The translations under genes and the position numbers were made by a program. A stretch of DNA of 58,312 nt, filler included, from Catajapyx aquilonaris (taxonomy: Eukaryota), in the NCBI GenBank assembly GCA_000934665.2. It is 3 parts of 3 records of this genome, joined end to end, with 100 filler letters (N's around TTAATTAATTAA, not from the genome) between each part and the next. Parts side by side here need not be neighbours in the genome. Positions count along the whole stretch, not along the records: positions 19,477 to 38,847 come from JYFJ02006473.1; 2 more parts are not named here. One strand, 5' to 3'. The notes under the pieces are model-generated. The model was not told where the DNA came from, searched no databases, and saw only the letters and a list, made by a program, of their open reading frames with translations. Shown in pieces: positions 19,377 through 49,225 of this stretch (position 1 is the first letter of the stretch; each line of letters opens with the position of its first letter).

Positions 19377-19476
19377 NNNNNNNNNNNNNNNNNNNNNNNN
19401 NNNNNNNNNNNNNNNNNNNNTTAATTAATTAANNNNNNNNNNNNNNNNNNNNNNNNNNNNNNNNNNNNNNNNNNNN
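19377..19476. other. Scaffold gap with artificial TTAATTAATTAA spacer
   Basis: 100-nt N run with a central six-frame stop linker. Confidence 0.95.
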
Positions 19477-19807
19477 CTACAACTGTTTCAATGTTTTACG
19501 AGCAATGGGCAAGTTACAGCAAGAAAAATTCCATTAAAATTTTTTGATGATTAGACTTAAGGTCGACCTGGAAAAACAAAGTTAGTGGTATAGGTTGAAG
19601 AAATTGATAATGCCAGTAATTGACAACGACGTTGAACTTGGCCGTATTTCAGATCTCACCACTTTTGACGGCCAAGTAATCAGCAGGAGAACTTGGCCTT
19701 TTTTTACAGGAAGGTTTTTGGTGGGATACTGTATTCTCACACCAACTATAGCATGATGTCTCTGTTTACAGGCAAACTATTTCTAATCTAGTGCAGTTCT
19801 GAGTCAT

Positions 19808-22800
19808 TTATCGCTTCCTGTCGAGAATTTTGTTAAGAAAGGCTGTGCAGAGGCCCCGCATGTTCGGATTTTCCATGTTGGAAATATCCTGCATGATCGA
19901 GTTCTTGGAATTGTCTTCGAACTTCCTGTACATCTCTGGAAGACTGAGGTTCCTGTAGAGGTTCTTAATTCGGGACACGTGCTTGGGGTCCTCGGATCCG
20001 TAGTTCTTCTGAAATGGGAGGGACATGCGATGGAGGGAGGGACACTCACAAAACGCTGAGAAATTCCTTCAGGTATCATGATGCATGCACGAGAAACAAA
20101 GAGCATGCTGACGCCCTTGATGTAGTACAGTACCTCCAGGACCATCCTCTGATGGTGATCCACGTGCTTGAGGGCAGTGACCACCAGCCAGGAGCACTTT
20201 CCCTCCTCGATGTCCGTCCCCATCTTACCCATGACCTCTGGGTCACCGAAGCAGTCCAAGTAGTCGTCCTGGACTTGGAAGAGGTGGCCAACCTTCAAGA
20301 GGACGGCCTCCACCTCCGAGTGACTTCTCTCGTCAAACATTCCTGCCTAATACAGTAATTGTGAATTAATAATGTTCATGGCAACGAATACGTACCACGT
20401 ACAGTTCATCATGATTCATCAGATGTACCGAAAGAATGCATTTTAAAAATAGTTCATTAGTTATGAGGTGCATCATAGATTTCCAATGGGGGCCAGTTTC
20501 ATAAAAACTCGTTAACGTTGCTTCGACGTACCGTGCAGCTTTTTTTCTCAATTGGCATTTTTATTTCCCCCTATACTGAATTACATACTGTATTATAATA
20601 ATATTATCGTAAATTATTATTTCCGCTATCTCACCATGATCATTGCTAGTCCCACTGGGAGGTAAAAGGAGTAATATGAGGTCTTGTACATGACTATTGT
20701 TGCGTATCTCTCTTCTGTGAACAGGTCGAGCTGTGGCTTGCTACCAGATGAGGTCAGGAGGTCCAGGCACTGACCCTTCTCCGTTTTGAAAATAGTCTTT
20801 GAAGGAAAATAAAGCATGTCCACATCATATGCGTCTCATTCCTGATTGCATGGTTGAAATTTAGCATTCACACTGTACGAACGATTTTTTCTCTTACCAT
20901 CAATCAAACCATCAATCAAACCACCAATCAATCAATCAATCAATCAATCGATATTTACCAATAATTTCTATTTCATAATAGTTTCTAATGATCATTAATA
21001 ACAACGGTTAACTTTGCTGCCTGAGATAGCAGTTATAATCCAGGCACGAAATGTTATGTAATATAATTATTTTGTTTTTTTTGTGGGTTAGTCCATGTCA
21101 ATTCGATCACTCTGGCATAAGATTTTACCTCCCCTCTTCAGATTTTGGCGAAATTTGGCAGAGTTGTAGGGTTCACAGATATACGGAATCGGGCCAAATT
21201 TCGCGTTCATTGGTTCGACCTGTTCGGCAAGGTACGTCACGGAAATTGTTACCATCGGGCATCATGCGGCTCGGTTTTTCTAACATTTTCTTGAAAACCT
21301 TATTTTATATTGGATGAATTTTGACAGTGAGCATATCAACGGTTAGATCACAGTTATAATATTTATCATACCAAGCCACTTTAATAAAAATATCACTTAA
21401 TTTCTGCTCGTACCATGTATTTTCGTAATTTGATATTTGGCCAAGTTTTTTAGGAATTAATGCATCTTCTATTTTGAGAGGTGTAATGTCGTATGAGAGG
21501 AGTCATGTTCTAGGCGACTGCCAAAAATCAGGCTGGGCCAACCAGAGACTGTTGAGAAAATAAATAAAACGTCTTCTAACCAGCCTATAATGAAGTAATC
21601 GGGCTTCACACTGAGACCCCCTATGATTATGGAATGTTATGATGTGATGTGGAAAAATGTTAAAATTACTTGTATAGTCTCCCGTTTTCTGGAAGTGAAT
21701 ATTACACGGATTGATGGGGCCTTTATTTATTCACTTTTAAGCCAGCCTACTCTCACAATCTTCCCTGTCTCCTCAGCAGTGGAGTACATGCCGACAGTCA
21801 CTATTACAACAGCCTGGCCCTGGTTAAAATGCATGTTACTTGAGTCCCACTGACATTAGCTCTTGCATTAGTGCTTCTTCTTTTTAAATATATTATTTCG
21901 CTACATATTGGAACACGGCATCGTTGAAGGCACCTTCTGCCCAATGAAGTATTATTTGCTGGGTCTTCGCAAGCTGGTCTTCACTGGGTCTTCACCCCAA
22001 GTCTATGCCTCCCAGGCCGTCGCATTGCCCTTTACCGTGGCTTGTAGTCAGCCAAAACGTATCAATCTGCCAAAATCCCGAAACCATCATAATTATAATG
22101 ATGTGCTAAGTTGACGTTGCGATTCTTGTACTGCGAAAAGTAGGAAATATTCTTGACTGGGATTCCTATTTTCAAGTCTGAAATCAATTTAAAAAATAAA
22201 GGGATGGATTGCTACCTTGATTGCAACAGTCAATTTTCAAAATCGAAGATGCATCAATTCCTTAAAAAAGAGGTCAAATGTCACATAAAAAATCCATGGC
22301 ACGAGCAGAAAGTGGCTTTTCATGATTCATCTATCTGTGATCTCCCCGCAATATGCTCACTGTCCAAATGCGACCGATAGAAAATAAGTTATTCATGAAA
22401 ATGTCCGAAAAAAGGCGCCGCATGCCGCCAGTGGTAACAATAATTTTCGTGACCTCCCACGCCGAACAGGTCGTAATACGTAATTAACGCATAATTTGGC
22501 CCGATACTATAACTCTATGAACCCTACAACTCTGCCAAAATAACGTTGTCAAAATCGGAGGATGGGAGGTTTCTTCGGGCCGATTTTGAGCGAGTTTATT
22601 ATGACAACCACCTGATGACTCCCATAGTAAATGTTTCCCTCTATTAAAAACCAGTTTCTGGAGCATTACCTCGTTTAATAAGTCGACGCACTTGGTGTAG
22701 TAGGTCTGGTCTCGGTGGTACTTCCACAGGATATGGAAGGCGGCCCTTTCCATGAGCAAGGCGTCGTTGAAGGCCTTTGGTCATAGTCCGTTGGTCAAGT

Positions 22801-22835
22801 ACCAGCAGGGCTGACCTCTTCTGGTCTTGGAATTG
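19808..22835 (-). pseudogene. FPPS-like trans-isoprenyl diphosphate synthase pseudogene (copy 1): partial exon 22835-22670, then 20796-20635, 20346-20134, 20008-19808
   Basis: Near-identical to the intact copy at 32337-35664 ([37 protein letters not shown]). It has an in-frame TGA at 22783-22781 (GGG in the intact copy), and exons 1-2 plus the first DDXXD motif are deleted. Confidence 0.9.
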
Positions 22836-23709
22836 ACGTGCACACATGCAGCCTGACATACTCTTTTTGGGTTACGAAAGAGCAGAATCACGATGAGAGT
22901 AGTTATGCAATTTTGAAACCTTTTCTCTAAAAACGCTCTACCCTAGAGAGAATTAATTAATATTTACATAATAATCCCTTCATCATGAAGATGCTAGTAT
23001 ATTATTCATGGTTAAGTGCTTTATTCGGTATTCGTTCCTCGCAAATGCACGATACACCACTGTGAATGTCTTGTACAGCCTCTGCTGCGAGAAACTACAC
23101 GAAGTTTCTCTCCTTGAGAATACAAAATTGCCTGAGCAAAGCATCACCTCTGCGCTAGACATGAAACTGAGATATTATGCATAAGATGTTATTAATTTAT
23201 TCAATCAATGTCCTTCTGCATAAGACAGAGTTGATCTGGAAAATACATTAGTCTACAAGTTGCATCAAAAACTAAGGAATCCCCAACATTATTCCAGATA
23301 TATCTATGTTTATCATTACATTAACTTAATTGCTACAGGATTAATAACTATGAACTGAAGAAAATAGCATTCTTCTGATATTTTTCTGTATTCTTTTCGT
23401 CCCTATTCTTGCATACGTATAATACATTTTTAGTTTCCATTGGATGCTGCGGTTTTTATCCCATTATTAATATGTTGCCAGTTTTGCAATAGTACAGAAG
23501 CATGGTTTTCATAATAGTGTGTTTTAATGAACGCATTGGGGTCAGCTAGAGTGTAAGTCTGAATGGGTGATTCTCCAAAAACTTACCATTTTCAAAGCAA
23601 GAATTAATGAATTTCAAAACTTGTTTTAAAAATATGGAAAAATTCTCACTTATATATATGAGGTCACAAATCAGGGAAAAATATGGAGAACTAATTCTGA
23701 TATTCTAAT

Positions 23710-24125
23710 GCCAGGAGAGTGAATATTTCCAGGAGTTCGGGAGCCAGAAGAATGACCTATGCATGCAATAGGATCAATATCACGGTCCAGAACAAACGTT
23801 GTCTATGGAGATTTCGGTGGGTTCAAGAAGACCCTTCATGCCATGGAATCAGAGTTATTTCAAAACATTTAAACTATTTTGTGACATAGAAAAATGAGCC
23901 AGGAGTGTGAACTTTTTATTTCCGGGAGTTTGGGAGCCAGAAGAATTGACCTTTGGATGCATTAGGATCGATTAGGATTAATATCACGGTCCAGAACAAA
24001 CGTTGACTCTGGAAATTTCTGTGGGTTCAAGAAGACCCTTCATGCCATGGAATCACAGTTATTTCAAAATATTTATGATATTTTGTGACATAGAAAAATG
24101 AGCCAGGAGTGTGGACTTTTTATTT
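23710..24125. repeat. Tandem repeat, ~190-200-bp unit, ~2.1 copies
   Basis: gccaggag.gtg starts at ~23710, ~23898 and ~24102. The block atatcacggtccagaacaaacgttg...caagaagacccttcatgccatggaatca occurs twice. Confidence 0.85.
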
Positions 24126-24799
24126 TCGAGAAAACTCGGGACACATTTTGGAGTGATGCAGCAAGGTCGTGTCAAATGAAACTCAATTAATAATACTAAT
24201 ATACTAATAATTAATAATAATAATAATTAATAATAATTAATATACTAAGGTGCGAGGTAAAGAAAGACCCACACTTTATGCCGAATTTGGATTGGAGTTC
24301 GATTGGAATGGTTCAGTATGTTCCTCCCAGTCTCTTCTTCGCGGATCGTCAAAGTACAGTTGACTCCGGATATAACAGCCTCGGTTATAACAGACTCGAA
24401 AGGGAAAATACGTTGCTTTTGATTATTCAACTTGCTTTCCCACGCGCAAGATGACAGAGAACATACTGATTGTGAGCATCCTGCCGTTCTGAAACTTTAT
24501 TGTTGCTACACTTCCTGGCAAATTTCATAGCGGAAAGGAGGGATACATACTGTATATAAATAATTGTCATAATGGGCCATCAGAAACGACGAAAATAATT
24601 TATTGCGCAAAAAAAGTGAAAATAGGTCAATAACATTGCTGCCTTACCAAGATTTAGGTTATTATTTTATAGCATTATTCAGGTTTACGTAAACTTACAA
24701 TCCTGTGGATGTGGATTGCGTGATTGTTGTGAGTCATCACTCATGTTTTATCCCGCTCCCCCCNCCCCCCCCCCCCCATCAGCAGAGAGGCAATAAGCA

Positions 24800-26717
24800 T
24801 CACTCTCGCTGTTGCTGTAAAGAACTGATGTGCTCGGTGTGTTTGTGGTCCAAATACTTCAAGAAGTTGGCAATTCGAGTTCTCTTATCGGAGTCGAATT
24901 TTTCCAGTTCACTCTTCCTTTCCGATTTCATCCGATAAGGCTGAAAAAATTCGATTATTGTAATCACTATACGAAGAAGGGTGAATTACACATGATTATG
25001 CTGACTTTTTCATGCTGCAAGAGGGAATAAGAGCTCAAAGACTTAAAGCCATAGGAAGTTATTTAAAAGCATTAAAATGTCACAGACTCATTAGTGCATT
25101 GTTCATCTTCCAGGACTACTTCCTGTTTACAATTAATCCAAGGGAAGTAATTGTTTATAATTAAGGGGGAACTGTCCCAGTCTGTATTTAAGTGATGTAC
25201 TGTACTGTATAGTACCTTGTACGTGCCTCACTGCATGATTTTGAAACCATGCAGTTGAAACAACCTTGACAAACATGCAACTTTTTTTACGATCTTGCAT
25301 TGATTATACAATAGTAGTAAGAAGGGATCACATGCCTTCAAATAATCGGCGTGAAGTTGATACTTCAACATAGCGCCCATTACGTTCCAAAATCCGTAAT
25401 TAGGCCACAAAACCTTGTCAAACGCGATGAAGCTGTACGCACTCTGCAATCAGAAACGAAGCACAGGATAATATTACAGTACAGGGGTGTTGGTATTTTT
25501 TGACGCCCGGTCCTACATGGCCAGTGCTCTGTTTATGTTCATATTAATTACCTGCCACATCATGAAGTTGGAGAACCTCATTTCTCCGGATGTTCTGACG
25601 ATCATGTCCAGAGGAGGCAGGTCCCCCGTCTGAAGGCACTGCTCCAACAATGCTTCGGACACGTCGTCCGGTTGAATCAGGCCGTTCCTCACTCCTTCCT
25701 TCAGCTGGTTTATGGCGCACGTCATGTCGTCTCGACCTATGCAAGAAACGGATGGAACAAATTTGCGCGTCGTTTGCGGCTATTTTTCCACAGGCCATGA
25801 GACGGTGAACATCTGATTCCATCCAACAATACCACATGTGTTTTGTCTGTCAGGCAGTCGTCGAAAAGATATTTTCATTTTGCAGGTATGTACTGTACAT
25901 GAAGCCAACTTACCAGCATATGGCATGGCCACACAGTAAACACGATCTTTGCAATGCCGTGTCCTTTCCATTAGCTCTCCGGCCAGAACTCGAAGTCTTT
26001 CGGGAAATAACTCCATTCGACCAATGACTCGAAACTGGATCCCACCTTTTATCATCAAGTCACTAGAATATTGAAAGCATAACACATTAAAAGGGATCTT
26101 AATTGTAAATGCGGGGGAAAAGAAGTAGTAATGTATAGAATATATACTACTTACACCTCATCCAAGTATTTAGTCATGGCATCTTCAAACACCTGAAGCA
26201 GCCCATCAATTTCTTCTTGGGGTCGAGCAAAATTGTCCAAGCTGAACGCAAATGTGGTCACCGCGTAGACTCCAACCAATCCACACCATCCTAACACGTT
26301 TATCATTTTTTCACCGCTAAGTGTGAATAAATAATTTACATTAAAATATGCGATTAGAAAAATGTGTCATGAATATAGCTGCTACGAAACTCACCCTTCT
26401 TCATGACCGCTCATGATCGGAATCCCCTTGGATCTGGCGTATCGTCTGTTTCCGTCCATGATGAATCCAACATGTCGAGGGACACTTCCTTGCTTTATAA
26501 TCTCAACAACAAAATCTTGCAGATGTGAAATTCTATATTTTTCTGCATAATGCGCTGGTATGGTTCCATCATCGACATGAGTCTGAACTTCATCCTGTTT
26601 AGAATAAGTGCCATTCAATTTATCTACCACGTGATGAAACACGAGGTGAAACAGTGTTTCCCAACCGTATGAAATTATATTTCTTCCAAATTTATCACCA
26701 AGTGTACTTACCAGCAT
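24800..26717 (-). CDS. DHDDS: cis-prenyltransferase, DHDDS-like (~316 aa). Exons 26717-26712, 26594-26395, 26316-26155, 26062-25914, 25736-25552, 25443-25336, 24940-24800
   Basis: All five cis-PT regions are present: [57 protein letters not shown], followed by VLWPNY.FWN and a DHDDS-like C-terminal helix ([12 protein letters not shown]). Splice phases give an open frame; the last intron needs a GC donor. Orthologue versus paralogue is unresolved. Confidence 0.9.
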
Positions 26718-29700
26718 GGTGAATGCAGAATCACTTCGTCACACTCTCGTTGTGAATTGGCAGGTGTCCGTCTTATACACACTGCTAAATAGATAATAAA
26801 GAGCCGACTAAAAATCACATAGAGTATATCACACGATCCAGTCGCGCCCTCATGCATCCTTTTAATGGCAGGCACGTACTACATCACAAATAAGCAATAA
26901 ACACTGCACAGTGTGGAACACTATACTGACGAAATGTGGCCTGATAGAGTCTAAGCTCACTTATTTGTATATACGACCTATAAATTTTGCAGATTTTTAC
27001 TGGTCGGTAGAGTGGCATGCGAATGTTGTACGCGGCATAATAACAGCTATTGTCCATTCAAACAGAGAGCACGGCATCCTTTGAGAATCCTGTCAAGGAT
27101 TTACATCAAAATTATAGCTTGCGAGGATGTCAGGCACCTTCTTGAAAATTTCCCCCGCTCAAACACGGGATTTGATCAAGCATCCTCCTCGATGACGTCC
27201 ATCCTTGCAACTGTGGATACCACTGAACAAGCCTGTATCGCTGGTTGCCGGAGTCAGGCGGTTTAGCAATGGTCTACTATCGGATTTTTAAATACTTGCC
27301 CATGTGTTTGACTTTAAATAGGAAAATGATCCAAAAAATAACGTTATACATCGTTAGAAAATTTGTTTAAATCTACGTAACATATATGCGAGTTGTTTAC
27401 CTACCTGTATTGTGTAATTTTTTATCGCAAGAAGAACACGGAAAGGTGTCCTTCTTTGACTAGTTGCCGACGTTACGCCGCAAAATGAATTTTTAAATGA
27501 CACTTCTCGGAGGCCAAAAAATTCTCCCTGTGTGAACCCAGGATAGTGCAAATCTTTGTCTATCTAATTATATATTTTGAAACTTAGAAGTTCCCATTTC
27601 TGTAATCATAATTAAGTTAATTTCACACCTCAGTTATCTCGGCCGTTTATAATCCGAATTATTTCACAAATGTATCGACGGCAAGCCATAAATGTGCGTC
27701 ATAAAACTACATCGTCCTCTATTACACTAAAATGTTAAAAATATTGTTTTAGTAAGTTTAATAAACAATTGCCCAGCCCCGCTTTTTGGCGGGAATAGAC
27801 GGCGATACTTTTAAATACGTTTAAAACGGTTTAATACGGTGGAATATTAACACGCACATTTCTGTCTGTCACCAATTCGCAATGAAACGGAGCCTCACTG
27901 CAATTATTTTTGTCATAAGAATCCCTCAATCAGAGCAGCCAGATCCGTCCTTGATCCTGACCTTCCAAAAGTTTCATCGTCTGAGAAACTTTTTAACGGA
28001 TTGCACCACAGCAGTGATTGGGGGATGCAAATGACAAGTGCCAGGACCAACCATGAGATCTCTCTAGACGTTGTGGGTACCGTACCGTCACGAAGATTTG
28101 GAATGTCCGCAGCGAAAACAGCAACGGGCCAAACTAACCACACCGGCGAGCGATAGACTGGCCGCTACAGGAACTCATTCCTTATATTATATCAAGTTTT
28201 ATATTTATATATGTCCAAGTTAGTAACCTTCTTCAAGGTTATTACTGATGATACGCAGCACGACATAAACCTCACCGGTTCACGAGTGACGTACCCATCG
28301 AGAAGGCTAATTAATTTTATGGGAATTTTGTCCCCTTCATGTTCAATATACAGTGCAGTATATACAAGGTGTTTCATCACCGTGGTGTTTGAGAAATATA
28401 GGCTACCGACTCACCTTTAGAATGGCCCCCTTGCGAGCCAGGGGCGTCATATGCGATTACCATAGCTTAGTTACCCAAATAATGACATTTTCACAGGCCA
28501 GTAGAGAATATCCAGAAAGGTTTGTATCCTATACACTGGTCTCCCTTGGAGTGAATTACTTAGTTGATTAATTTACAACTCTATCCAAGGATCTCACCAC
28601 TCGACTCATGTGAGCCGGAGGATGAAAAGCTTTCACAATCAGTAGGCAGATTAGTTGTAGTGAATGGTCATGGTTTAATACAATACATTTCAGTAGGGAT
28701 GTAATGATGATTAGTGTACCTCATACCGCAAGGATTTTTTTGGAATATAAATGATATCCATCTGGTAGATTAATTAAATATAAGCAAGAAACTTACCTTT
28801 TTCTTACATCATTAGGATATGATTGTATTGCAACACTTTTTTTACATGTACTGTACGTAATATGTTGCATGAATAATTACAGTAATTATTTTACAAGCTT
28901 GAATGTGAGTATAGTAATATTCGTTAGCAACAAGGTAACACCCTGATAACACGTAGAGTGAACGCGAAATAATTACACTCCCACCCCTAAACCATGTTAG
29001 ATCCTATAATTATGTGCACAAGACTTGAGTAAGTCGTGCCTGAAAGTGACGTTAACCGTGTCGTGGGGTCCTTTAGGACCCCATGCCATATTTTAATTTT
29101 TCTTAATTTTTTTATATAATAGTTTTCAATGTAATGACTATAGGCAATCATTCTTTGAACAATGCCTAAAATGACCGCTAATTGAAAATATATACTTTTT
29201 AAAATAATTCATTGCGAGAGTTCATTTTTGTAGTGGAGATCAATAAGAACTGACACAAACGAGTATGCTTGGAACCGTGACGTGGGATCCTTTTGGTCTC
29301 CGGAGAGCATTGGTCCAAAACAAATACTTATCTACATTTTGGTAGGTGTGAAAATTATGAGACCGGATTTGATCCATGAAATGAAGTTTTTTTGAGGAAT
29401 ACAGGGAGTTTCAGGTCATTATTGCTTCAAGGTCACTAATTGCGATGCATTTTAATGCCCAAGTAGCATCCGGTATGCGGTACCTCTCTTTTACAATAAT
29501 GTTAGTAAACACATTTCATCACTATTTTGTAGTATGCGCCCATGGAATTATTTTATTAATAACGTTGTTTCGCACGTGTTTTGTGATCACGAGGAAACCT
29601 CTACTCATCTAGCTTTTCAATGCCAGTTTTAATGCGGCTAATATTCTAGTAAGCAACAACTACAAGACTGACAATGAGAAAAAAAATTTCAAAGTGTAGT

Positions 29701-30123
29701 ACTTACTCAGTCAACAGGTATACCGGTAGCCTACTGCTTATTATAAAATATGTCGTGATTTTTCGACGAATCGCGCAACGTAGGAAATTTTTGGAATGGA
29801 AATGAGGAGGCATATGGGACTAGACAATTATTTTGTGACTTTAACAGCCCAACATTAACAGCCCAAGATATAATAGGACATTTCCTCACGGAGAGCTACT
29901 GTATTATATTCTTAGGGTCATCACGCCATTTCCACCTTCGCAGCGCACTTGGATACAAATTAATCTCAGAGAAATTCCCCTGCATTCAACCTTGTCATAT
30001 AAGGCTATTATTAGAAGTTCTACTTACCCTCCATCCAAGGTGACCCACAATGCTTTCGCTTTTCCTCAACGATAATTTTATATTTTGTCTATAGAAATGT
30101 CGTCTCATGCAAAACGCAGACAT

Positions 30124-30124
<1 letters not shown>

Positions 30125-30199
<75 letters not shown>
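30125..30199. repeat. (GAT)25 microsatellite
   Basis: Read directly from the sequence. Confidence 0.95.
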
Positions 30200-32336
30200 C
30201 CGGGTAGTGCACGATCTCCTTCGAGATAATTATATGGCAGGCATTCATTACTAATATATTATATATAGGCCTATACCATTAGCAGCACCCACCCGTTTCA
30301 TTTGAAACTGAAAACAGTTACAGATATGAACTTTACTGGGTTTTGATGCTCTGTAGATGTCACTTTGTGTGTCATACAGACGGACAGACGGACCGATCAC
30401 GTGAGGGGGCGGGGATAAAAGAGAAACGACACCACATGATTCACATTTAAAATGACGGCATGAAGGCTTTACAAATTTGAAATAATTTCTCATCAAGTCA
30501 TTGTCCGTTTTAATGAAGAATGTGTCACTCGAAAAATTGGGAATAAACTACCCCAACGCCTTTACTGTTAAATATTTATGTTCATATAGGGACATTTGAA
30601 AGTTTCAAAAATTGCATACGGTCGTGATTTAGTCGAATGAAAACGGTTCTTTAGCAGATGGGCAAAAACATATTTTTGTGGGGGTCTTAATATGTGCAGT
30701 TTAATTTCCTCACCTTGCTTGTATGATTTTGGGAATTACAGTGGACCTTGCATGTTGCATGTGTGACTAGGTAAATCCCTGACCAAGGGGTTAACCACTC
30801 GACTATAAAGTGTACACTGGAGTACCAAATTCAAGGAGCAAGGAGTAATAAAGAGTGAGGTACCTGAGGAGTACCAGGGAGTACCACTCTCAGGTGTACA
30901 CCGGAGTACCGAAGTGGTTACCCCCTTGTCCCTGACTTTGATTGTGCCCACTACAGGACGTTAACATTGAGTAACGTGTGATGTGAGTTTCGCGAGAAGC
31001 AAAAAAAAAATCGGTTGCAAGGTCGACCGGTTTTTTCGAAAACATTTTTATGAAGCTCTTACTACTTGTAGATGACGATATGTACTGTTGTACGAAGATA
31101 TAGCCACCTGTATTGATAATAATTATACCTGGAAATAACTCACTTGTCATACAGGCAATCTTACATCAATAGTCCTTGGAATTGGCGACATATCAAGCAT
31201 CAAACCATTGCAGGAAGGTTGTACACTCGAATTTAATGCACAAATGCTCACTTCTGGTGAATGACAGCAATTAGATACTGTACTGTACTGTACTGCTATA
31301 CAGTATACAGTATATACTGGCGTATTATCTCATATGAAGTACCATTAGTGTGCAAGGGGGTGATTATACAAAGAAGTGCACCTCAAAGCATCCACTTCAA
31401 GAGGAAACAAGTATTGATGAATATTTACGATCACTCTGAAAACTATTAACCTGGCAATTCTTGATGTCTTATTGTACAAAAAAATAATATGAATCTCCTT
31501 CGGTTGGTAGTGAGTCGTAAGAATATAATACAGTAACATTTTATTTGCTGATCTGTACAGACTTTTCTCCCCATAAAAGCGCTATTACGTAGGCCTAATA
31601 CAGCGATTAATTAATTGTCAGTGAGATTACCGAACTACGAGAGGAAGGACTGCAAGTTTTTGTCCCCATTACAAACAGCAGCATTTGTTTCACCACATTA
31701 TGAACGTACTGTACGATAAAAAAGTCGATATACTAATAAGTTCTGTTGGAAGATGATCATACAATTATTTCAACCTTGATTCCGAATGCGATACTCACAG
31801 GTTTTAGACTACATACATTTCTTTGCACCTTGTACAGTATGAATTCTGCAATTTCGACTCACAGAGAAATCATCGATTGTAGATTTTATGTTATCGTATG
31901 AAAGGTCATCTCGAACTGTGGATTATGTAATGGCCTATCCTGTTTAGGAGAGATTATTTTGTTAGTTGAATCGATACTATCGGGTTCAAATACTTTTGGC
32001 CACTTTATCCTGGTCTTGAAGCAACCCTTCACACAAACACACACATGTTGCCAGATGGTGGCTTCGATGTCGTTTGGGTTGCGGGCTATTCAGGATCACA
32101 CTGGTAAGATCATTTCACCGGTAACCGGTCAAGGAAGCCGGTCAGGCAAGCATGCGTGTCACCGCCGCATTTTCCTCTTGAATCTGACGTCAGAAAAACC
32201 AAGTTTTTTCATCCCTTTATTTTTATCATACAATCATAAAACACTGTAAAATACTGTATTCTCACACCAACAAACTATAGCATGATGTCTCTGTTTACAT
32301 GCAAACTATTTCTAATCTAGTGCAGTTCTGAGTCAT

Positions 32337-35300
32337 TTATCGCTTCCTGTCGAGGATTTTGTTAAGAAAGGCTGTGCAGAGGCCCCGCATGTTCGGATTT
32401 TCCATGTTGGAAATATCCTGCAGGATCGAGTTCTTGGAATTGTCTTCGAACTTCCTGTACATCTCTGGAAGACTGAGGTCCCTGTAGAGGTTCTTAACTC
32501 GGGACACGTGCTTGGGGTCCTCGGATCCGTAGTTCTTCTGAAATGGGAGGGACATGCGATGGAGGGAGGGACACTCACAAAACGCTGAGAAATTCCTTCA
32601 AGTATCATGAAGCATGCACGAGAAACAAAGAGCATGCTGACGCCCTTGATGTAGTACAGTAGGTACCTCTAGGACCATCCTCTGATGGTGATCCACGTGC
32701 TTGAGGATAGTGACCACCAGCCAGGAGCACTTTCCCTCCTCGATGTCCGTCCCCACCTTACCCATGACCTCTGGGTCACCGAAGCAGTCCAAGTAGTCGT
32801 CCTGGACTTGGAAGAGGTGGCCAACCTTCAAGAGGACGGCCTCCACCTCCGAGTGACTTCTCTCGTCAAACATTCCAGCCTAATACAGTATTATGAATTA
32901 ATAATGTTCATGACAATGAACACGTACCACGTACAGTTCATCATGATTCATAAGATGTACCGAAAGAATGTATTTAAAAATAGTTTATGAGTTATGAGGT
33001 GGATCATAGATTTCCAATGGGGGCCAGTTTCATAAAAACTCGTTAACGTTGCTTCGACTTACCGTGCTGCTTTTATTTCTAAATTTGCCTTTTTATGGCC
33101 CCCTATACTGTATTATATATTATTATAATAATATCGTAAATTAATTCAGATATCTCACCATGATCATTGCTAGTCCCACCGGGAGGTAAAAGGAGTAATA
33201 TGAGGTCTTGTACTTGACTATTGTTGCGTATCTCTCTTCCGTGAACAGGTCGAGCTGCGGCTTGCTACCTGATGAGGTCAGGAGGTCCAGGCACTGACCC
33301 TTCTCCGTTTTGAAAATAATCTTTGAAGGAAAATAAAGCATGTCCACATCATATGCGTCTCATTCCTGATTGCATGGTTGAAAGTTAACATTCATACTGT
33401 TCGAACGGTTCTTCTCTTTACCAATAATTTCTATTTCATAATAGTTTCTAATGATTATTAATAACAACGGTTAACTTTTCTGCCTAAGATAGCAGTTATA
33501 ATCCAGGCACGAAAGGTTATGTAGTATAATTATTTTGTTTTATTTGTGGGTTAGTCCATCTCAATTCGATCTCTCTGGCATAAGAATTTACCTCCCCTCC
33601 TTCGATTTTGGCGAAATTTGGCAGAGTTGTAGGGTTCATAGAGATATGGTATCGGGCCAAATTTCGCGTTAATTGGTTCGACCTGTTCGGCAAGGTATCA
33701 TCAAGCATCATGCGGACATTTTTTGGAATAACTTTTTTTCTCTTGGTCGTATTTGGACAGTGAGCATATCTACGGTTAGACCACAGTTATATTTATCATA
33801 CCAAGCTACTTTAATAAAAATATTAAGCAATATCTGCTCGTACCATGTATTTTCGTAATGTGATATTTGACCTAGTTTTTTAGGAATTGATGCATCTTCG
33901 ATTTTGAAAAGTGATATGTCGTATGACAGGCGTCATGCTCTAGGCGACTGCCAAAAATCAGGCTGGGCCAACCAGAGACTGTTGAGAAAATAAATAAAAC
34001 GTCTTCTAACCAGCCAATAATGAAGTAATTGGGCTTCACACTGAGACACCCTATGATTATTATGGAATGATATGATGTGATGTTGAAAACGTCAAAATAT
34101 TACTCTGTATAGTCTCCCGTGTTCTGGAAGTGAATATTCCACTGATTGATGGTGCCTTTATTTATTCATTTTTAAGCCAACCTACTCTCACGGTCTTCCC
34201 GCTCTCCCCAGTGGAGTACTACATACCGACACTATTGCAACAGCCAGGCCCTGATTAAAATGCATGTTACTTGAGTCCCACTGACAGGTGTGGCTACTTC
34301 CATTAGCTCTTGCATCAGTGCATCTTCTTTTTAAATGTATTCTTTTGCTACATATTGGAACACGGCATCCTTCAAGGCACCTTCTGCCCAATGAAGCATT
34401 ATATTGCTGGGTCTTTGCAAGCTGGTCTTGACTGCTGGGTCTTCACTCCAAGTCTGTGCCTCCCAAGCAGTCGCATTGCCCTTCACCGTGCCAAAATCCC
34501 GAAACCATCATAAGGATGTGCTAAGTTGATGTTGCGATTCTTGTACTGCGAGGTAACCCCTTCGGAAAAGTAGGAAATATTCTTGACTGGGATTCCTATT
34601 TTTTCAAGTCTGAAACCACTGTAAAAAATAAAGAGATGGATTGCTACCTTGATTGCAACAGTATCACCATTACTTCATTATAGTCATGCAGTTGGAAATG
34701 ATGACGATCCTAGTGACAGGGGAAACTGTTTGCAAAATTTCTATCATAGTAAACCACATGCAACAATGTGCAATGTAATACTCACTCACCAAAGGATCAT
34801 GTTAGCTAGAAGCTTAGGACTGACCCCTTCGAACTCTTTGTAACCACGAGCAGACTACCCCAATGATCAACAGAAAAACCCGTTCACGGGGTGCCAACAA
34901 TCATGTCATCAGAATACAGACAAAACATTATAATCATCACAAGATGTGAGTCATTTCTCCATCACAGGGGGTTATGACAACCACCTGATGACTCCCAGAG
35001 TAAATGTTTCCCTCTATTAAAAACAAGTTTCTGGAGCATTACCTCGTTTAATAAGTCGACGCACTTGGTGTAGTAGGTCTGGTCTCGGTGGTACTTCCAC
35101 AGGATATGGAAGGCCGCCCTTTCCATGAGCAAGGCGTCGTTGAAGGCCTTTGGCCCCAGTCCGTTGGTCAAGTACCAGTAGGGCTGACCTCTTCTGGTCT
35201 TGGAATTGTCCATTATGTCGTCCGCCACCAAAAATGCTGCCTGCAGCTGTGGAAACAACATTACGTATAGCCGTATAATATGGTTTGAGAAAGTTCTACT

Positions 35301-35664
35301 TTATTCTGCTTAATGGTTCAGGCAAGCGCACTGTACTAAAACTCACCAGCTCGATGCACCAGCCCAATACGTGTGCCAACTTGATGTTCTCCTCTGTGAC
35401 ATGTTTCTTCTCAGCCAGGACGGAAAATGAATTGGCCACCATCGTGCCTCGGTTCAGTTTCCCTCCGAGAAGGTTGTAGCTCAACATCTGCAATGACAAA
35501 TATGTGAAGAGATCTGCGCACAATCTAGCTAGAGTCCTGACCTTTTCGAACCAACAGTCAAAGTCTCTCAGAACATGGTCGTGCTTTTCGGAGATGGTCA
35601 GGCTCTTAATGACCTCAGAAGTCAGCGCCAAGAAAGAGTCACTGTCTCGGTTCTTAGATCCCAT
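32337..35664 (-). CDS. FDPS: FPPS-like trans-isoprenyl diphosphate synthase (copy 2, intact, 347 aa). Exons 35664-35542, 35487-35347, 35246-35043, 33320-33159, 32879-32667, 32537-32337
   Basis: Motifs [35 protein letters not shown] (FARM), [35 protein letters not shown] (SARM), [14 protein letters not shown], and basic C-terminus RKR. All five introns are GT-AG and phase 0, with no stops. Confidence 0.93.
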
Positions 35665-35772
35665 CTCTTTAACACTCTCTGAAGGCGAATAGTAATGCTA
35701 GACTCTCGGGAGGAGGTTTCTGTTGGTGCTCCGCAGTCGATGTGTTATTCAAGTTGCTGCACACGTAAGGTA

Positions 35773-35780
35773 TATTTATA
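35773..35780 (-). promoter_or_regulatory. Candidate TATA box of the intact FPPS-like gene
   Basis: TATAAATA on the minus strand ~110 nt upstream of the ATG at 35664. Confidence 0.5.
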
Positions 35781-37526
35781 ACCTATAACCTAACAGCTAG
35801 CCTGGAAATTCTGACGTGCACTTTCCCACCCTGACTCAATCTCATTGGGTTACGAAAGAGCCGAATCACGATGATTGTACTTGTAGTTGTGCAATTTTGA
35901 AAACTTTTCTCTAAATACTCTCCACCACAGAGAGAATTAATTAATATTTACATGGTAATCCCCTCACTATGAAGATCTGGTATTTTTTCCTCTCCAAGAC
36001 GCTTCTAACAGCTATCACGCACGCGGGGAAAAAAACTTGACATTTTGCATTTCCTGCAATACTGCACAAGGGGTCTGATGAGGATAACCTGACCGCTAGT
36101 CTCTGACGTGCACACATGCAGCCCGCCTGACACAATCTTTTTGGGTTACGAAAGAGCAGAATCACGATGAGAGTAGTTATGCAATTTTGAAACCTTTTCT
36201 ATAAAAACGCTCCAGCATAGAGAGAATTAATTAATATTTACATAATAATCCCTTCACCATGAAGATGCTAGTATTTTCATGGTTAAGCGCTTTATTCGGT
36301 ATTCGTTCCTCTGCAAGACGCAAATGCACCACTGTGAATGTCTTGTGCAGCATCTGCTGCGAGAAACTACACGTAGTTTCTCTCCTTGAGAATAATTATA
36401 ATGTGAATTGCCTGAGGAAAGCATCACCTCTGCACTAGACATGAAACTGAGATATTATGCATAAGATGGTATTAATTCAATCAATGTCCTTCTGCATAAG
36501 AATAAGACAGAGTTGATCTGGAAAATAAAGTAGACTACAAGTTGCATCAAGAACTAAGGAATCCCCCAACATATTACAGATATAGACATGTTTATCATTA
36601 CATTAACTTAATTGCTACAGGATTAATAACTATGAACTGAAGCAAATAACATTCTTCTAATATTTTCTGTATTCTTTTCGTCCCTATTTACACATGATGA
36701 TACTTGCCTAACATTATCATTGTATACTTGATGTACAGACGACTGCATGCAACACATCAATAAAATAATGCATTTTTTATGCGTCATCACTGCCCTTGCA
36801 TGCATGAGAGAGTGGGTGTGCATTAATAATAGAGCAATTATTATCACACCTATGGGGTACAAAATGAATGGTGTTTTATTGCCTAAGCCCTAAGTTGCAT
36901 GTTTCTCACTATTGCAACAAAAAACCCGATGGTCACGAACATGCATATTACGCTACCGCACCTTAGTCTTGATTGTCTCAAGTAAGAGACCCAGTCATGT
37001 ACTACAGAGCGCTCCTCTGCCCAAGTAGACGATCCATAGAGGGGAGGCGGAGAAGAGTTTGACACTCCTGGCACTGTACGCAAAGTAGGGGAAGGCAAAA
37101 AGGGAAAGAAAGACCCACACTTTTGTTTCGAATTTGGATTGGAGTTCGATTGGAATGGCTTCAGTATCCCAGCCTCTTCTTCGCGGATCGTCAAAGTACA
37201 GTTGACTCCGGATATAACAGCCTCGGTTATAACAGACTCGAAAGGGACAATACGTTGCTTTTAATTATTCAACTTGCTTTCCCACGCGCAAGAAGACAGA
37301 GAATATACTGAGGACAGTGAGGAGTGTGATTTTCGTATCTGTCACTGATCCTAAAGCTATTACTCAAAATCGTCCTTTTTGTGGTACATTTGACAAAAAT
37401 GAGACGACAGAGGAAAGGTACGGATTTTGTTTTGGTCCCGCGTAATTTACGGGTGAGCTAATTTTTGCAATTTTGTGGATAGTTTCATATAATTATGTAT
37501 GCAGGAGTGGGCATTATAAGCATAAT

Positions 37527-38095
37527 ACTAGCAGGATACCCGGCGTTGCTCGGGTTATGAAATACTTTTCATATTAACTTGGTATGTAAGGTCGTCTCTG
37601 ATATGCTGGGGTAATATTATTACTCCAGCGAATCAGTGTCTCCAGCAAATCTGTGTCTGAAAAGCTCTACGAGCTTCAACTTGTAATAACATGTTTTGAC
37701 ACTCATGGAACATCGTAACTCTCAGCTATCATCACTACTCTTCTTAGCAACAGGACTTTCAAAGATTAAATAAAATAAAAGATTCTTTTCAAATAAATTA
37801 TTAAGGGTATATACAGTATACATGTTAGGTTCAGAGTACAATATTTTCACTACTGAAAACATTGAAAATATTTAATGTGTTGACAACTTTTATGCAATCA
37901 ATAATACGTTTGATGGTGTCTAGAGGCTTCGCCTACAACATTCGGGCTCTATATTGTAGACCTTTGAGGCCAATTGTTGCACAATTAATATTTCATATCA
38001 TTTTAGCTCCCCCATTTACAAAGATTGCGTGGAGGGCTAGTCTGTCATCGTTATATGCATTGAAGTGTACAAAAAGTACAGTCTAATATTATAAG
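37527..38095. mobile_element. Possible Helitron-like insertion (absent from the copy-1 duplicate)
   Basis: Begins TACTAGCAGGATACCCGGCGTTGCTCGGG (CTAG next to a short GC hairpin), the typical terminus of arthropod Helitrons. The far boundary is approximate. Confidence 0.45.
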
Positions 38096-38847
38096 TGACG
38101 CGAGAGATTGGTACACGTGCTACGTGCGTTGTTATTACAAAAAAATTTATCGCAACATTTTTAGTTTCCATTGGATGCTGCGGTTTTTATCCCATTATTA
38201 ATATGATGCCAGTTTTGCAATCGTACAGAAGCATGGTTTTCACAATAGTGTATTTTAATGAACGCGTTGGGTCAGCTAGAGTATAATATCTGAAAACAAA
38301 CTCAAATAATAAATTTCCTGACCTGGTTGGCATGTCACTTACGTAACGTTTTCTACCTACAATCCACATATGACGCATGTAATGGGAAAAAATCAATTCG
38401 TTCCAATTGAACATTTCCAACCGAAAACTCATTTAAACTGACACAATGGATTGACGATTAAATGGCCCTAACATGTGACCATTGTTATCCATCTGTTTGG
38501 GTAACAAAATATAATCCTGCCGTTCGGAAACTTTATTGTTGCTACACTTCTTGGTAAATTTCATAGGGGAAAGGAAGGAGACATACTGTATTAATTGTCA
38601 TAATGGGCCATCAGAAGCAATGAAAATAATTTATTGCGCAAAAAAAGTGAAAATATGTCAATAACATTGCTGCCTTACCAAGATTTAGATTATTATTTTA
38701 GAGTATTATTCTGGTTTACGTAAACTTACAATCCTGTGGATGTGGAATGGGTGATTGTTGTGAGTCATCACTCACGTTTTATCGCTCTCCAATAATATAT
38801 TATAGTTGGAAAGATCCAGGCGGGTAATTCACCACCTGTATGCGCCA

Positions 38848-38947
38848 NNNNNNNNNNNNNNNNNNNNNNNNNNNNNNNNNNNNNNNNNNNNTTAATTAAT
38901 TAANNNNNNNNNNNNNNNNNNNNNNNNNNNNNNNNNNNNNNNNNNNN
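38848..38947. other. Scaffold gap with artificial TTAATTAATTAA spacer
   Basis: 100-nt N run with a central six-frame stop linker. Confidence 0.95.
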
Positions 38948-39082
38948 ATATTAATGCATTTGAAATGAATAAAGTGAAATTATTCACCTGTCCCAGTTTC
39001 AAGTTGGTAAGTGAATAAAATTATGCACTCCAGGTTTTCAGTGTATGAATAAATCATAATTTACAAAAATTGTGATTCTCAC

Positions 39083-41120
39083 CTCGGAAGAGACTCATGA
39101 ATCGGATTAACCAGAAACCCGACGAGCTTTGCGGTGTATCCACAAGTGATGACCACTGAGAATATCCACCAGAGAGAGAGGAACATCCTGGCAGAGTGTG
39201 ACCTAGGGACAAGGTTTGGGTTCTCCTCGATCAGGGTCAGGAGGACATAGGTCAGGGAGTAAGGGAAGAGGGGAGGGGAGGGCTTGGGGAAGGGGGAGGT
39301 GACCTTCTTGGTGGTGACCAGGAGGAGAAGCCAGAGGAAGAGGCATCCGATGAGGCAGGAAATGGCGATCAGGAGCCACATTCCGTAGGTGTAGGGTCGG
39401 ATGATCACATCCCAAGAGTACAGAATTCGAGGTTTACGAGTGACATAGGTCACATACGAGGTGTAAAAGGGGTATCCAAACTCGACCACTTCAAAGGGTG
39501 CCACGAACATCACTGTTCCCAGACAAAAGGCTGTTCTTCCATAGAAAATTTCTCCAGTCAGTCCAATCCATGTTCCGTCATCCAATTTCTCTTCGGGAGA
39601 TACTGCGTTTGCCATGCGATCCATATGGGCTCTAAAGTTCATTTTACTTGTAAATTCCAAGAGCAGCAGTTCCACTAAGTAAAGGAACGTACGATCTCGA
39701 AATTTATCTTTTATAATCCTATTATCTGTGATAAGGTCGTCAAACGGATACAGACCCGATATATTCTGCCCCCGCAGGTCTGAAGTGAAATCCGGGAACA
39801 GATCCTGAAGCTTAACACTGCCTGAGTCAATCTGGACCATTTGTTCGTGGTGGCAGAAGAAGCAGACTGACAAACATGACGAGGTCTCCATGTCCAGTAC
39901 AATCTTTTTGCTGTAATTAAATAGTTAAATATGACAATATAGTTAATTCATGTTTGTTATAATCACTTCATCTTTTGCACTTTTTTCAATTTACTTAGCA
40001 TAATAAACCAATAACAAGAGGTAGCAATAAAAATAGTTCTCCTTACAACTGCATCTTGGTCAAATAAAAGTGGGGGTTGCTCCAGTGCACGACCAAACTT
40101 TTTTGCAGATAATTGAATTTACCTGTAATGCAAGCAATGTAATAGGATGTGTACCGCATTATTTTAATGATCAGTTTAAGTCAGAAATTTTTGGGATCTA
40201 ATATGCTAATTTTAAGCAGTTACAATTAGGATTGTAAGTTTATAATGCGCAGAGCGGCAGAAGCAGAGCAGGACTCATAATAAAATAATTTGCTAATATT
40301 TGACAGAGGTGAACCCTTTCAAGTTAGGTATGCCCTGCCAAGTTTTGGTTATCTGTCATTAAAATTCGAACGAACGGTTGCAATGGGTGATGACCGATTG
40401 AATATTATTCCAATCTTGGGTATACCTAATAATGCCAATGTCATATTGGTCGTAGTCTTACCAATTTATAAAATTTGTCAGTCACTTACAATGACTGCTT
40501 ATCAGTGAGCTGTTTATCGACACCCTGCCTAGAGAGTTTCTATCACTGTACTTGTGTCGGAAAATACCGGATTCATGTTTACCCAAGAATCCTCGAGTGT
40601 GGATGCCGAAGTATCTCCTCCACCCCTCCATCCCTGGAGAAGAAGACGAAGTGGTGCAGACGGGTGTTGAGGAGGACACTGGCTGCAGTGGTCTGGATCA
40701 GTGACTCCAAGTTCTGGTGACGGAGGAAGAAGACGAACAAGGCGCAGTTGGAGTGATGGGTGGCACTGGGAAGATGCAGCCAGTCGAACCAGTACGTCAC
40801 TGGTGAGGTGTGGTTGACATTTCCCGGGTCCCCTTCTGCCATGCTTTGGGTCATCACTTCGGATTCGGGCTGAACCAGTGTAATAAGCAGAACCATACGT
40901 TGTGTTTTGAAGAAGAGGCCCATCACTTGCGCTATCTCAAGGGGCAGATGATCGTAGTCATGAGAAAGGACGATCAGGCAGGACTCGTCCAACTCGATCC
41001 GATATTTTCCAACAGGCTCATTTGTTCAATAATTGACGTGTTATCACGTGAGAATATGAATGATGCCACTACCATTAGTGGCAGAAGAATGAAAATAATT
41101 GCTTCCATCGTTATTCCCAT
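39083..41120 (-). pseudogene. Divergent ionotropic receptor A. Exons 41120-40583 and 39910-39083; last exon not seen (probably in the gap); 1-nt frameshift near 40994
   Basis: Signal-like N-terminus, S1 motif DGTWIGLTGEIFYGR, M1 IIRPYTYGMWLLIAIS, M2 SARMFLSLWWIFSVVITCGYTAKLVGFL. The sequence reads aactcgatcc where paralogue B reads aactgcgatcc. Confidence 0.8.
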
Positions 41121-42677
41121 ATTTTAGACGAAAGAAGCACACTGAAAGCTGCCTCTCAGCACTTCCGACTAGCTGCGAATAATCCTCTGTATACACTTTC
41201 TATGAATACCTTGAAGTTACCTTCAGAATAATTGCAATATTACGAATTTGCTTCTGATTGTGTATCGAACCTATCTGACCACTTTGATTATGCAAGGAGA
41301 AACCTTTGCCTGTAATTTTGGCGGCCAGAATGAATCAGAACAAGCACTTAAATTCTAGAGCAATCATCTGTTCTAAAATATATTCCGTAAAGATGACATG
41401 AACAAAAGTGGCTCATTTACCGAATATATTTTAGAACAAATGGATGACATTATGGATATTTTGCTCTCAAAATCTGAGTTTGATGAGTAGCTGTAACAGA
41501 CTTCCATAAGAGGCATATTGCCTTCATATTCTCTCAGTTTGTAGATTCCATAGGTGCAAAGGTATACATTATTTTGTAACTCACCACATGCATTAACTTT
41601 GGCACTTTTGTTATTGTTATTAATGCCTCTAGAAACTTGACTAAGACTGAAATAATACTGCAGTATTTCATGCTTATACGTAAATGAAGGAGAATCATTG
41701 TTGATACTAACGAAGCATCGATGTATTATTTGGTTAAATGTTCAATGACAATAATATCTCTCGAATTATATTACAAACATCCTAAATAAGGTCGCGTTTC
41801 ATAAAATATCGACTGGCCGGCTGAATACTACAGTGAGATTCATTTTTCCAAATTATTGTGACTATCGTCAAAAGAACAAGCAAACCAAAGTTGTTGTCAT
41901 TTTATAGTGGCTTTAAATAATATAATAATATTGATTATTGATTGATATTATGTAATTATTATTTACACGTAGTACATTAAGAGATTAAGATTAAGAAGGC
42001 ACTATCACTGGTTCTGTCATTATTGCAACAATGGGTTATTAGCCTATCATTGTGCCATTACCGACATTCGTTTGTCATGACTCATGACATGTTTTCAGAT
42101 TGACAAAAGATATTACTTTGAGTTACCACAAGAGCGTACCACTAAATTGATTAGAAAATGAGAACTGATACTAATGTTACATCATTTTGACCTTCGTAGT
42201 GTATAAAATAACACTAAGCAATGATAATAATTTAAAGTAAATTTTCCAATAAGCACAATTAAGACATGCAAATGTGTAAATTTTTGAAGGTGGCGAAATT
42301 ATTGTATTTGTCCTGGGAAGTACGCCTATAATATTTGCATTTAAAAACTAATGTTTCAACAACTGAGTGATTATATTGATAGCACATTTGACGTAACACC
42401 TAAGTTCAAAAAATATTATTACATCGGAATGATGAAATGTGGCATGTTATACACTAGTGGATTAAAATGTGTAGAACAAAAAGCGGAAAATTCATTTTTT
42501 ATGCCTGGAAAATAACTTATTGCCATATTAATTTGCTTCCTTTAGCTACTTTATCAAATATGGACCCAAGTGAAATATGGTACAATTATGAGGATCAGTT
42601 AATGTGTTACTGATATGTGCCAATCTCTTCAGTCCAATACCATGGTCCAATCTATGGACAAGCAACCCTCTCAGCAG

Positions 42678-45600: not shown

Positions 45601-46098
45601 CACCCCTCTATCCCTGGTGAAGAAGACGAAGTGGTGCTGACGGGTGTTGAGGAGGACACTGGCTGCAGTGGTCTGGATCAGTGACTCCAAGTTTTGGTGA
45701 CGGAGGAAGAAGACGAACAAGGCGCAGTTGGAGTGATGGGTGGCACTGGGAAGATGCAACCAGTCGAACCAGTATGTCACTGGTGAGGTGTGGTTGACAT
45801 TTCCCGGGTCCTCTTCTGCCATGCTTTGGGTCATCACTTCGGATTCGGGCTGAACCAGTCGAATAGGCAGGACCATACGTTGTGTTTTGAATAAGTGATC
45901 CATCACTTGCACTATCTCAAGTGGCAGATCATCGTAGTCATGAGAAAGGACGATCAAGCAGGACTCGTCCAACTGCGATCCGATCTCTTCCAACAGGCTC
46001 ATTTGTTCAGGAATTGACATGTTATCACGTGAGAATATGAATGACGATACTGACATTTGCGGGAGAAAGATGAAAATAATTGGTATTATTCTACCCAT
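42678..46098 (-). pseudogene. Divergent ionotropic receptor B. Exons 46098-45563, 44159-43331 and ~43266-42678; frameshift near 43742
   Basis: Full IR topology: S1 DGTWIGLTG, M1, M2 GYTAKL, S2 RLESSGMIDYY, M3 LNSNQMQGLFYGLVLSYGIFALPAFFAEKL. The segment between FC and EVVE is 25 nt versus 30 nt in paralogue A, giving TGA at 43741-43739. Confidence 0.82.
44598..45168. mobile_element. MITE with long diverged inverted arms in intron 1 of IR-B
   Basis: ccttggacagtgaatttc...aattttaataatgaacctgag...ccacggaattt is mirrored by aaattccgtgg...ctcaggttcattattaaaatt...gaaatccactgtccaagg. Confidence 0.75.
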
Positions 46099-48642: not shown

Positions 48643-49225
48643 CTTAGAGAAGTACCTAATATTAAATGTACCATGTACTGACGTTGGCTGCTATAAAATG
48701 TGATTGTGACCTGTGCCAAATTCTAGTCCCCTCTATTTAATGTGACACTGTACTAACCTTGCAAAATAATACATGAAGAACATTTCAAAGTCAGGCAGAA
48801 TTACCGGTAATGGATTTTTGCATATATGAATACAGAAACTCCAGGTAATATCCCAATTTTCTGAAATAGCAGGAGAAGCACGAGCCACTGATTCCTCTTT
48901 GATAATACCAAACTTCTAGCGGCAACCTATTCATTTCAGTGAGAGGGAAATAGCTGAACAACCGAGCCAATGTGCGTCATAAGTCACAATGCTAAATAAG
49001 TAAGAAGCGAGTAATCTCCACCATGTTGAACAGCAGAGAGGCGCAATTCTTCACGCAAATCACTCCAACAGACCGCAAATGTCAAATTTAATATTTCCCC
49101 AATACAGGCCTACTATAATAACTGAACAGCTGTGGCGAAAAGACTTGGCTTACAGTATCTGAACAAATGGGATTTATTGCCAGTGTGATTCAGGGCATGC
49201 GAGACTCTCGCCCAGATTCGCAAAC

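Follow-up and report, generated by a model that had tools for sequence, protein, structure and literature searches.

An FPPS-like gene, its pseudogene copy and a DHDDS-type cis-prenyltransferase gene at one locus of Catajapyx aquilonaris

Gene content of the locus

We analysed a stretch of Catajapyx aquilonaris DNA in which an intact farnesyl diphosphate synthase (FPPS)-like gene, here called FPPS-B, a cis-prenyltransferase (cis-PT) gene of the DHDDS type, and a pseudogene copy of the first, FPPS-A, all lie on the minus strand, with cis-PT between the two FPPS copies. The whole stretch, referred to as the window, comprises 58312 bases, made up of three pieces, each about 19.37 kb long, that are joined by two identical 100-base linkers (19377-19476 and 38848-38947, each consisting of 44 N, TTAATTAATTAA and 44 N). 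Given that the linkers separate the pieces, gene neighbourhood across them is meaningless, and pieces 1 and 3 are unproven neighbours of the locus. All genes of interest fall within the middle piece, 19477-38847 (JYFJ02006473.1). Gene models and Pfam matches agree with the initial annotation in placing the intact gene, cis-PT and the pseudogene on one strand within about 16 kb. Its description of a gap-free contig holds in that they share a single piece, but this piece contains one N, at 24764, and the window as a whole is three linker-joined pieces.

A Pfam scan of the 66 open reading frames (ORFs) of at least 70 aa in the middle piece returned PF00348, in both FPPS copies, and PF01255, in cis-PT; no further family was found among these ORFs, bar one sub-threshold chance match. 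The claim that no other recognisable gene lies between the three is therefore borne out for Pfam-recognisable ORFs. When the whole window was searched by tblastn, no FPPS or cis-PT fragment appeared beyond the three genes. Spliced contigs were drawn from run X5 (kind not recorded) and DNA contigs from runs X1 and X2. The X5 contigs support four FPPS-family introns and two cis-PT exon ends, and none of their splice joints is present in X1 or X2. Their cover leaves out cis-PT exons 1-3 and most of the spacer between cis-PT and FPPS-B, a blank that carries no weight as evidence, and their depths, 3.7 for the cis-PT contig and 148-348 for FPPS-family contigs, cannot rank the genes and were not used for co-expression.

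FPPS-B occupies 32337-35664 on the minus strand and was modelled from frames, splice sites, X5 joints and PF00348. Exon 1 is counted in two parts, split by a 54-base intron, and the later exons are numbered 2-5; the exons lie at 35542-35664, 35347-35487, 35043-35246, 33159-33320, 32667-32879 and 32337-32537, form an open frame of 347 aa, and are separated by introns that are all GT-AG. Spliced contigs join 35246 to 35347, 35487 to 35542 (the 54-base intron) and 32878 to 33158, and a loose X5 end at 32539 reads the end of an FPPS exon 4. Against PF00348 the exon ORFs scored 74.4, 60.1 and 39.4 bits (cut-off 27), with exon 1 under the cut-off at 24.5, and four of them jointly cover positions 6-231 of 251. 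A solved-structure search with exon 2 gave avian and human FPPS as the best matches (E 2e-15). Both Asp-rich motifs are in place (DDIMD, residues 97-101, and DDYLD, residues 237-241, in the 347 aa), as are the Lys/Arg motif for isopentenyl diphosphate (IPP), GGKLNRG (Lys51, Arg54), the RRG after the first Asp-rich motif and the basic C-terminus (RKR).

The cis-PT gene, likewise on the minus strand, spans 24800-26717 and was modelled from frames, splice sites and PF01255. Its exons at 26395-26717, 26155-26316, 25914-26062, 25552-25736, 25336-25443 and 24800-24940 encode 355 aa, the start codon and exons 1-3 being predicted from frames and splice sites. Intron 5 (25335/24941) has a GC donor in place of GT; an exact X5 contig spans exon 5, ending at 25443 and 25336, and further X5 cover lies at 24906, within exon 6. 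Two other endings for the gene, in the frame running on from exon 5 (to 25228) and in a short terminal exon at 25072-25122, were ruled out by the splice from 25336 to 24940. Five exon ORFs cover positions 1-213 of the 219 of PF01255, the best scoring 58 and 41.6 bits. In a solved-structure search with exon 1, human DHDDS was the best match (E 2e-07), and plant short-chain and irregular cis-PTs matched more weakly (E 3e-05 to 3e-04).

Copies of the FPPS-like gene and the spacer

FPPS-A (19808-22835, minus strand) is a pseudogene copy of FPPS-B that runs from codon 14 of exon 2 to exon 5; alignment to FPPS-B places the homologues of exons 2 (in part) to 5 at 22670-22835, 20635-20796, 20134-20346 and 19808-20008. 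Ungapped, the exons of the two copies differ at 20 of 741 bases (97% coding identity), with a synonymous divergence (dS) of 0.061, a nonsynonymous divergence (dN) of 0.016 and a dN/dS of about 0.25. FPPS-A has no counterpart of 35209-35844 of FPPS-B, which holds both exon 1 parts and 38 bases from the start of exon 2, and it is without the first Asp-rich motif, part of that missing region; by tblastn, no exon 1 copy for FPPS-A was found in the window. A 31-base filler, 22836-22866, replaces the missing 5' region. An X1 DNA contig reads across this junction and carries the same filler, which shows that the junction did not arise by error in this assembly. An in-frame TGA lies at 22781-22783. 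Truncated at its 5' end and interrupted by a stop, FPPS-A is, judged by its sequence, a dead gene.

The two copies sit in larger duplicated segments found by blastn, segment A at 19726-24759 and segment B at 32251-38790, each made up of an FPPS copy and its upstream region and matching the other at 84-97% identity in blocks. Segment B ends 57 bases short of the end of the piece. Beside FPPS-B there is no second cis-PT remnant, the bases past 38790 being unlike the 3' end of cis-PT. A segment of about 6.5 kb carrying the FPPS gene was duplicated inside the locus, and one copy later died.

Spliced contigs also reveal another expressed FPPS paralogue elsewhere, 95-97% identical. Where X5 contigs of high depth cover the FPPS exons, they are only 95-97% like FPPS-B and are distinct from FPPS-A too, for example at the end of exon 4. 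Relative to FPPS-B, the 20 differences listed affect 16 codons, eight with a synonymous change and eight with a replacement; the contigs keep Ala92 and carry Cys at residue 111, and one of them has a one-base gap at 35190, a possible frameshift. For FPPS-B itself, X5 evidence is limited to one exact contig of 135 bases at the 3' end of the gene and to exact contigs of low depth within intron 2, of which the longest reaches into part of exon 3. Taken with the 97% coding identity and the dN/dS of about 0.25 between the copies in the window, the amplification of this FPPS is recent and under constraint.

Between cis-PT and FPPS-B lies a spacer, 27062-32339, that was examined by contig depth and repeat search and contains no Pfam family. 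It holds four high-copy repeat blocks (27062-27815, 28947-29323, 30455-31208 and 31963-32339), and a (TGA)25 run at 30124-30199. Summed X1 contig depth in the blocks ranges from 556 to 40654, against 35-50 in neighbouring bins, and many loose contig ends lie at 30928 and 31975. The blocks are possible misassembly points. X1 and X2 joints that have short sides in the blocks, such as one from 30928 to 35978 with a side of 26 bases, were discounted as products of the repeats.

With such blocks between the genes, and many loose ends at the block borders, unlinked loci might have been fused through the repeats and the linkage of cis-PT to FPPS-B be an assembly artefact. The DNA-run contigs are short and none among those listed bridges one gene to the other, and the piece ends 60-250 bases from the duplicated segments. 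On the FPPS-A side, in contrast, segment A ends about 40 bases past the cis-PT stop codon with no high-copy block in that interval, which means that at least one FPPS copy is linked to cis-PT with no such repeat in between. The unusual FPPS-A junction is, moreover, reproduced in the independent X1 contig. We therefore regard a fusion of this kind as very improbable.

Expected chemistry of the two enzymes

Canonical animal FPPS, as represented by the avian (1FPS) and human (FDPS) enzymes, share with FPPS-B the PF00348 fold, both DDxxD motifs, the Lys and Arg that bind IPP, a basic C-terminus and a protein length near 350 aa. FPPS-B departs from them in having Ala for the first Phe ahead of the first Asp-rich motif and Tyr for a Cys, in being multi-copy and in its long branch. 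In a residue survey of 88 homologues of 320-480 aa, it deviates at two of the columns conserved in at least 85% (Tyr111 for Cys, and Val for Ile). No protein in the collections searched, for either gene, exceeds 68% identity in any exon, and no close orthologue was found on which to anchor orthology. FPPS-B has 43-50% identity to every FPPS compared, including 47% to fish and lizard FPPS, and the mite and pseudoscorpion FPPS are similar in this respect. A quick tree of 49 rows places FPPS-B within a set of 22 arthropod FPPS (Shimodaira-Hasegawa-like approximate likelihood-ratio test, SH-aLRT, 97), as sister to P0034, a transcript-derived protein with which it shares 50% identity (SH-aLRT 93). 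Its end branch is 1.03, compared with a median of 0.46.

Ahead of its first Asp-rich motif FPPS-B has Ala92-Phe93 at positions -5 and -4, and so lacks the two-aromatic signature of C15 synthases. Ala92 aligns with Phe112 of avian FPPS, in an ungapped match of query residues 19-87 to residues 109-177 of the 367-residue chain 1ubv_A. Among the 88 homologues the pairs at these positions include Phe-Phe (46), His-Phe (14), Tyr-Phe (8) and Ala-Phe (8); all eight Ala-Phe homologues stem from a search seeded with this motif, the named ones being two protists, and Ala-Phe occurs in none of the 73 homologues retrieved by the exon 4 search alone. The louse Polyplax serrata has an FPPS-like protein, P0002, with Lys-Met at the two chain-length positions, which looks like an atypical arthropod FPPS paralogue.

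The same change at the same aligned position defines the avian F112A mutant used as a geranylgeranyl diphosphate (GGPP) synthase, which makes predominantly GGPP according to the available part of the source (PMC7003354). Replacing both aromatic positions of a bug FPPS likewise yielded a GGPP synthase, as given in the accessible text of PMC6140472. The avian enzyme is an engineered single mutant, whereas in FPPS-B the change is natural, is present in at least two gene copies and has a predicted product. Because the first aromatic residue of the floor pair is replaced by Ala, FPPS-B probably makes products beyond C15, either GGPP or a mixture of farnesyl diphosphate (FPP) and GGPP.

The initial annotation had also raised recruitment to terpene synthesis, by analogy with insect terpene synthases derived from isoprenyl diphosphate synthases (IDS). 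These enzymes, MhTPS of the harlequin bug and its relatives, resemble FPPS-B in being FPPS duplicates with a non-aromatic residue upstream of the first Asp-rich motif. In the bug terpene synthases both -4 and -5 are non-aromatic and the KKxR-type IPP motif is lost, as far as the available text of PMC6140472 describes them. FPPS-B shows neither feature: it keeps Phe at -4 as well as Lys51 and Arg54, and should thus still elongate, unlike enzymes of the MhTPS type. This speaks against recruitment to a terpene synthase. With its IPP-binding, Asp-rich and basic motifs all kept, FPPS-B should be a chain-elongating synthase.

Both genes could instead serve plain housekeeping roles, as FPPS and DHDDS, in an arthropod lineage that evolves fast, the Ala being neutral and the product FPP. 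That FPPS-B is no more distant from other FPPS than the mite and pseudoscorpion enzymes are would fit such a view, as would the retention of nearly all conserved residues in both proteins; the protein collections also contain no closer relative, so that the lineage is poorly sampled. A plain housekeeping gene is, however, harder to reconcile with several recent FPPS copies, one of them dead, with an Ala at the Phe112 position that is shared by none of the 73 rows retrieved by the exon 4 search alone, and with an end branch of more than twice the median. We consider this explanation unlikely.

The cis-PT protein has the architecture of the human DHDDS/NgBR system (6Z1N): a PF01255 domain, the RTSGE..R.S motif, a C-terminal tail and no RxG of its own. 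Its exon 6 tail motif, RIANFLKYL, aligns with the DHDDS tails of scallop, scorpion, millipede, beetle and fluke, and it thereby differs from compact short-chain cis-PTs. No C-terminal RxG was found; the sole R.G is at residue 228, in the catalytic domain, and the protein ends in QQQRE. PMC7573591 describes the C-terminal domain of DHDDS as missing from cis-PTs of short and medium chain length and assigns the RxG motif to NgBR, the partner of DHDDS. The linker within the C-terminal domain is shorter than in human DHDDS, as it is in two beetle rows. At 49 conserved columns, compared with an earlier model of the C-terminus, cis-PT keeps 44, and its five changes are mostly conservative; six other animal DHDDS show 1-7 departures at 49-51 columns, and a scallop DHDDS-like row shows none. 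An exhaustive protein search with exon 4 gave 2287 matches and no close one, and full-length identity to named DHDDS is 29-40%. In its tree the protein falls in the metazoan DHDDS group (SH-aLRT 86). To judge from these features, cis-PT has the look of a normal arthropod DHDDS that evolves fast. In the millipede Chamberlinius hualienensis, the DHDDS-like proteins P0258 and P0300 are 92% identical and encoded on one 13-Mb contig, so recent DHDDS duplication does happen in arthropods.

Adjacency of the genes and its meaning

On balance, and with modest confidence, we read the locus as a recently amplified, lineage-specific FPPS locus that happens to enclose a DHDDS-type cis-PT, each enzyme having the ordinary chemistry of its family. 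FPPS-B would condense IPP head-to-tail onto dimethylallyl diphosphate, geranyl diphosphate or FPP by means of its two Asp-rich, Mg-binding motifs and, with Ala in the floor, would run past C15 to GGPP or to mixed FPP and GGPP. cis-PT would be the catalytic subunit of a heteromeric dehydrodolichyl-diphosphate synthase, would need an NUS1/NgBR-type partner encoded elsewhere and would add many cis units to an all-trans primer. We infer that the neighbourhood of the two genes need not imply a shared pathway product. The five departures of cis-PT at 49 columns lie within the range of other arthropod DHDDS.

Several observations weigh against this reading. For FPPS-B, Tyr111 stands where 82 of 86 homologues have Cys, and the codon at 35179 reads Cys in FPPS-A and in every X1, X2 and X5 contig, and Tyr in the assembly. 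In a bug FPPS, changing that Cys to Lys abolished activity, according to the accessible part of PMC6140472. FPPS-B may thus be impaired at Tyr111, or the letter at 35179 may be an assembly error or a copy-specific change. For cis-PT, the end branch of 2.32 is the longest of its tree; its identity to vertebrate DHDDS, 37-38%, is the lowest, other named arthropod rows reaching 40-48%; and about 55 N-terminal residues, counted from a predicted start codon, have no counterpart in nine aligned relatives, which also sets it apart from human DHDDS. A clade of cis-PT with the five named arthropod DHDDS, which the tree does not recover, is only weakly tolerated (p-AU 0.078 in the approximately unbiased test, the tested group leaving out P0286, which pairs with the firefly row). 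Given the long branch, the low identity, the N-terminal extension and the weak arthropod clade, cis-PT may possibly be a specialised paralogue. Mealybugs have several very divergent DHDDS-like genes whose role is unknown according to the available text of PMC10960109, and on that account too cis-PT may be specialised. Finally, two sequential enzymes adjoining on one strand are uncommon a priori.

The initial annotation had proposed a dedicated two-enzyme module, in which a primer made by the FPPS-like enzyme (GGPP, for example) would be extended or coupled by cis-PT to give a polyprenyl, defensive or pheromonal isoprenoid. Non-homologous pathway genes do adjoin here, as in biosynthetic clusters, with cis-PT between two FPPS copies. 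The shared strand, the 16-kb span with no other Pfam-recognisable ORF between the genes, the amplified FPPS side with its atypical chain-length residue and the duplicated segment that adjoins the 3' end of cis-PT would all suit a module, as would the position of cis-PT as the fastest-evolving row of its tree, its unique N-terminal extension and the divergent mealybug genes. The trans enzyme is in fact not plain housekeeping: the recent duplication, the further paralogue and the Ala at the chain-length position make the FPPS side look specialised. The cis enzyme, on the other hand, carries no short-chain or irregular marks and retains the whole layout of a DHDDS, with a C-terminal domain that is missing from short- and medium-chain enzymes. 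What links the two genes is position, and adjacency is the ground on which a dedicated module would stand. Assuming a handful of FPPS-like genes, one or two cis-PT and some 15000 genes, we roughly estimate chance adjacency at the order of one in a thousand per genome, which would not be negligible across many windows; a single case among very many may be a chance event. A dedicated module is, in our judgement, quite unlikely.

A more specific form of coupling would have a natural F112A-type synthase of GGPP or longer products, amplified and kept next to a fast-evolving cis-PT that has a new N-terminal extension, supply a lineage-specific product, for instance a GGPP-primed (tri-trans) polyprenol or a derived cuticular or defensive lipid; we think this decidedly improbable. 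Among known systems, the mealybug Planococcus citri offers a likeness in its expanded trans-IDS and several DHDDS-like cis-IDS, some very distant, and a difference in that the product sought there is an irregular monoterpenoid and that the available text describes no cis/trans gene linkage (PMC10960109).

Plant terpene clusters that include cis-PTs, such as that on tomato chromosome 8, have cis-PTs physically clustered with other terpenoid genes, and clusters of the tomato type combine plastidial short-chain cis-PTs with terpene synthases and cytochromes P450. Here, by contrast, the cis-PT is of the DHDDS type, and neither a terpene synthase nor a tailoring gene is among the Pfam matches of the piece.

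The other two pieces of the window hold further features. Piece 3 contains tandem ionotropic-receptor-like genes at 39079-46254 and 49163-51253: the minus strand carries a pair of similar multi-exon copies, and the plus strand a single-exon ORF of 696 aa, to which the nearest Atlas clusters are arthropod Lig_chan families. Like the tree placement of FPPS-B, this receptor points to an arthropod source. By eye, minus-strand ORFs at 53409-58217 of the same piece resemble cadherin repeats, and ORFs at 3125-5919 in piece 1 resemble a BED-zinc-finger/hAT-type transposase and a MADF-like protein. Tandem repeats lie at 47122-47648 (periods 135/262) and 47816-48012 (56 bases), and a (TTA)26 run at 56532-56609.

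The locus is an arthropod FPPS family expansion together with a DHDDS gene, with a natural F112A-like residue as its oddity. Its value now lies in a well-resolved recent amplification and decay of an FPPS beside an ordinary-looking gene of the dolichol pathway; it is useful for annotation, and FPPS-B is a concrete candidate for enzyme assay. The arthropod biosynthesis of many terpenoids is still open, and physical clusters of non-homologous metabolic genes are, to our knowledge, rare in animals. If the family of FPPS duplicates makes GGPP, it would give an animal a second route to C20 primers, one derived from FPPS, and if it also feeds cis-PT, the locus would be a testable animal isoprenoid gene cluster of a rare kind, built from two folds.

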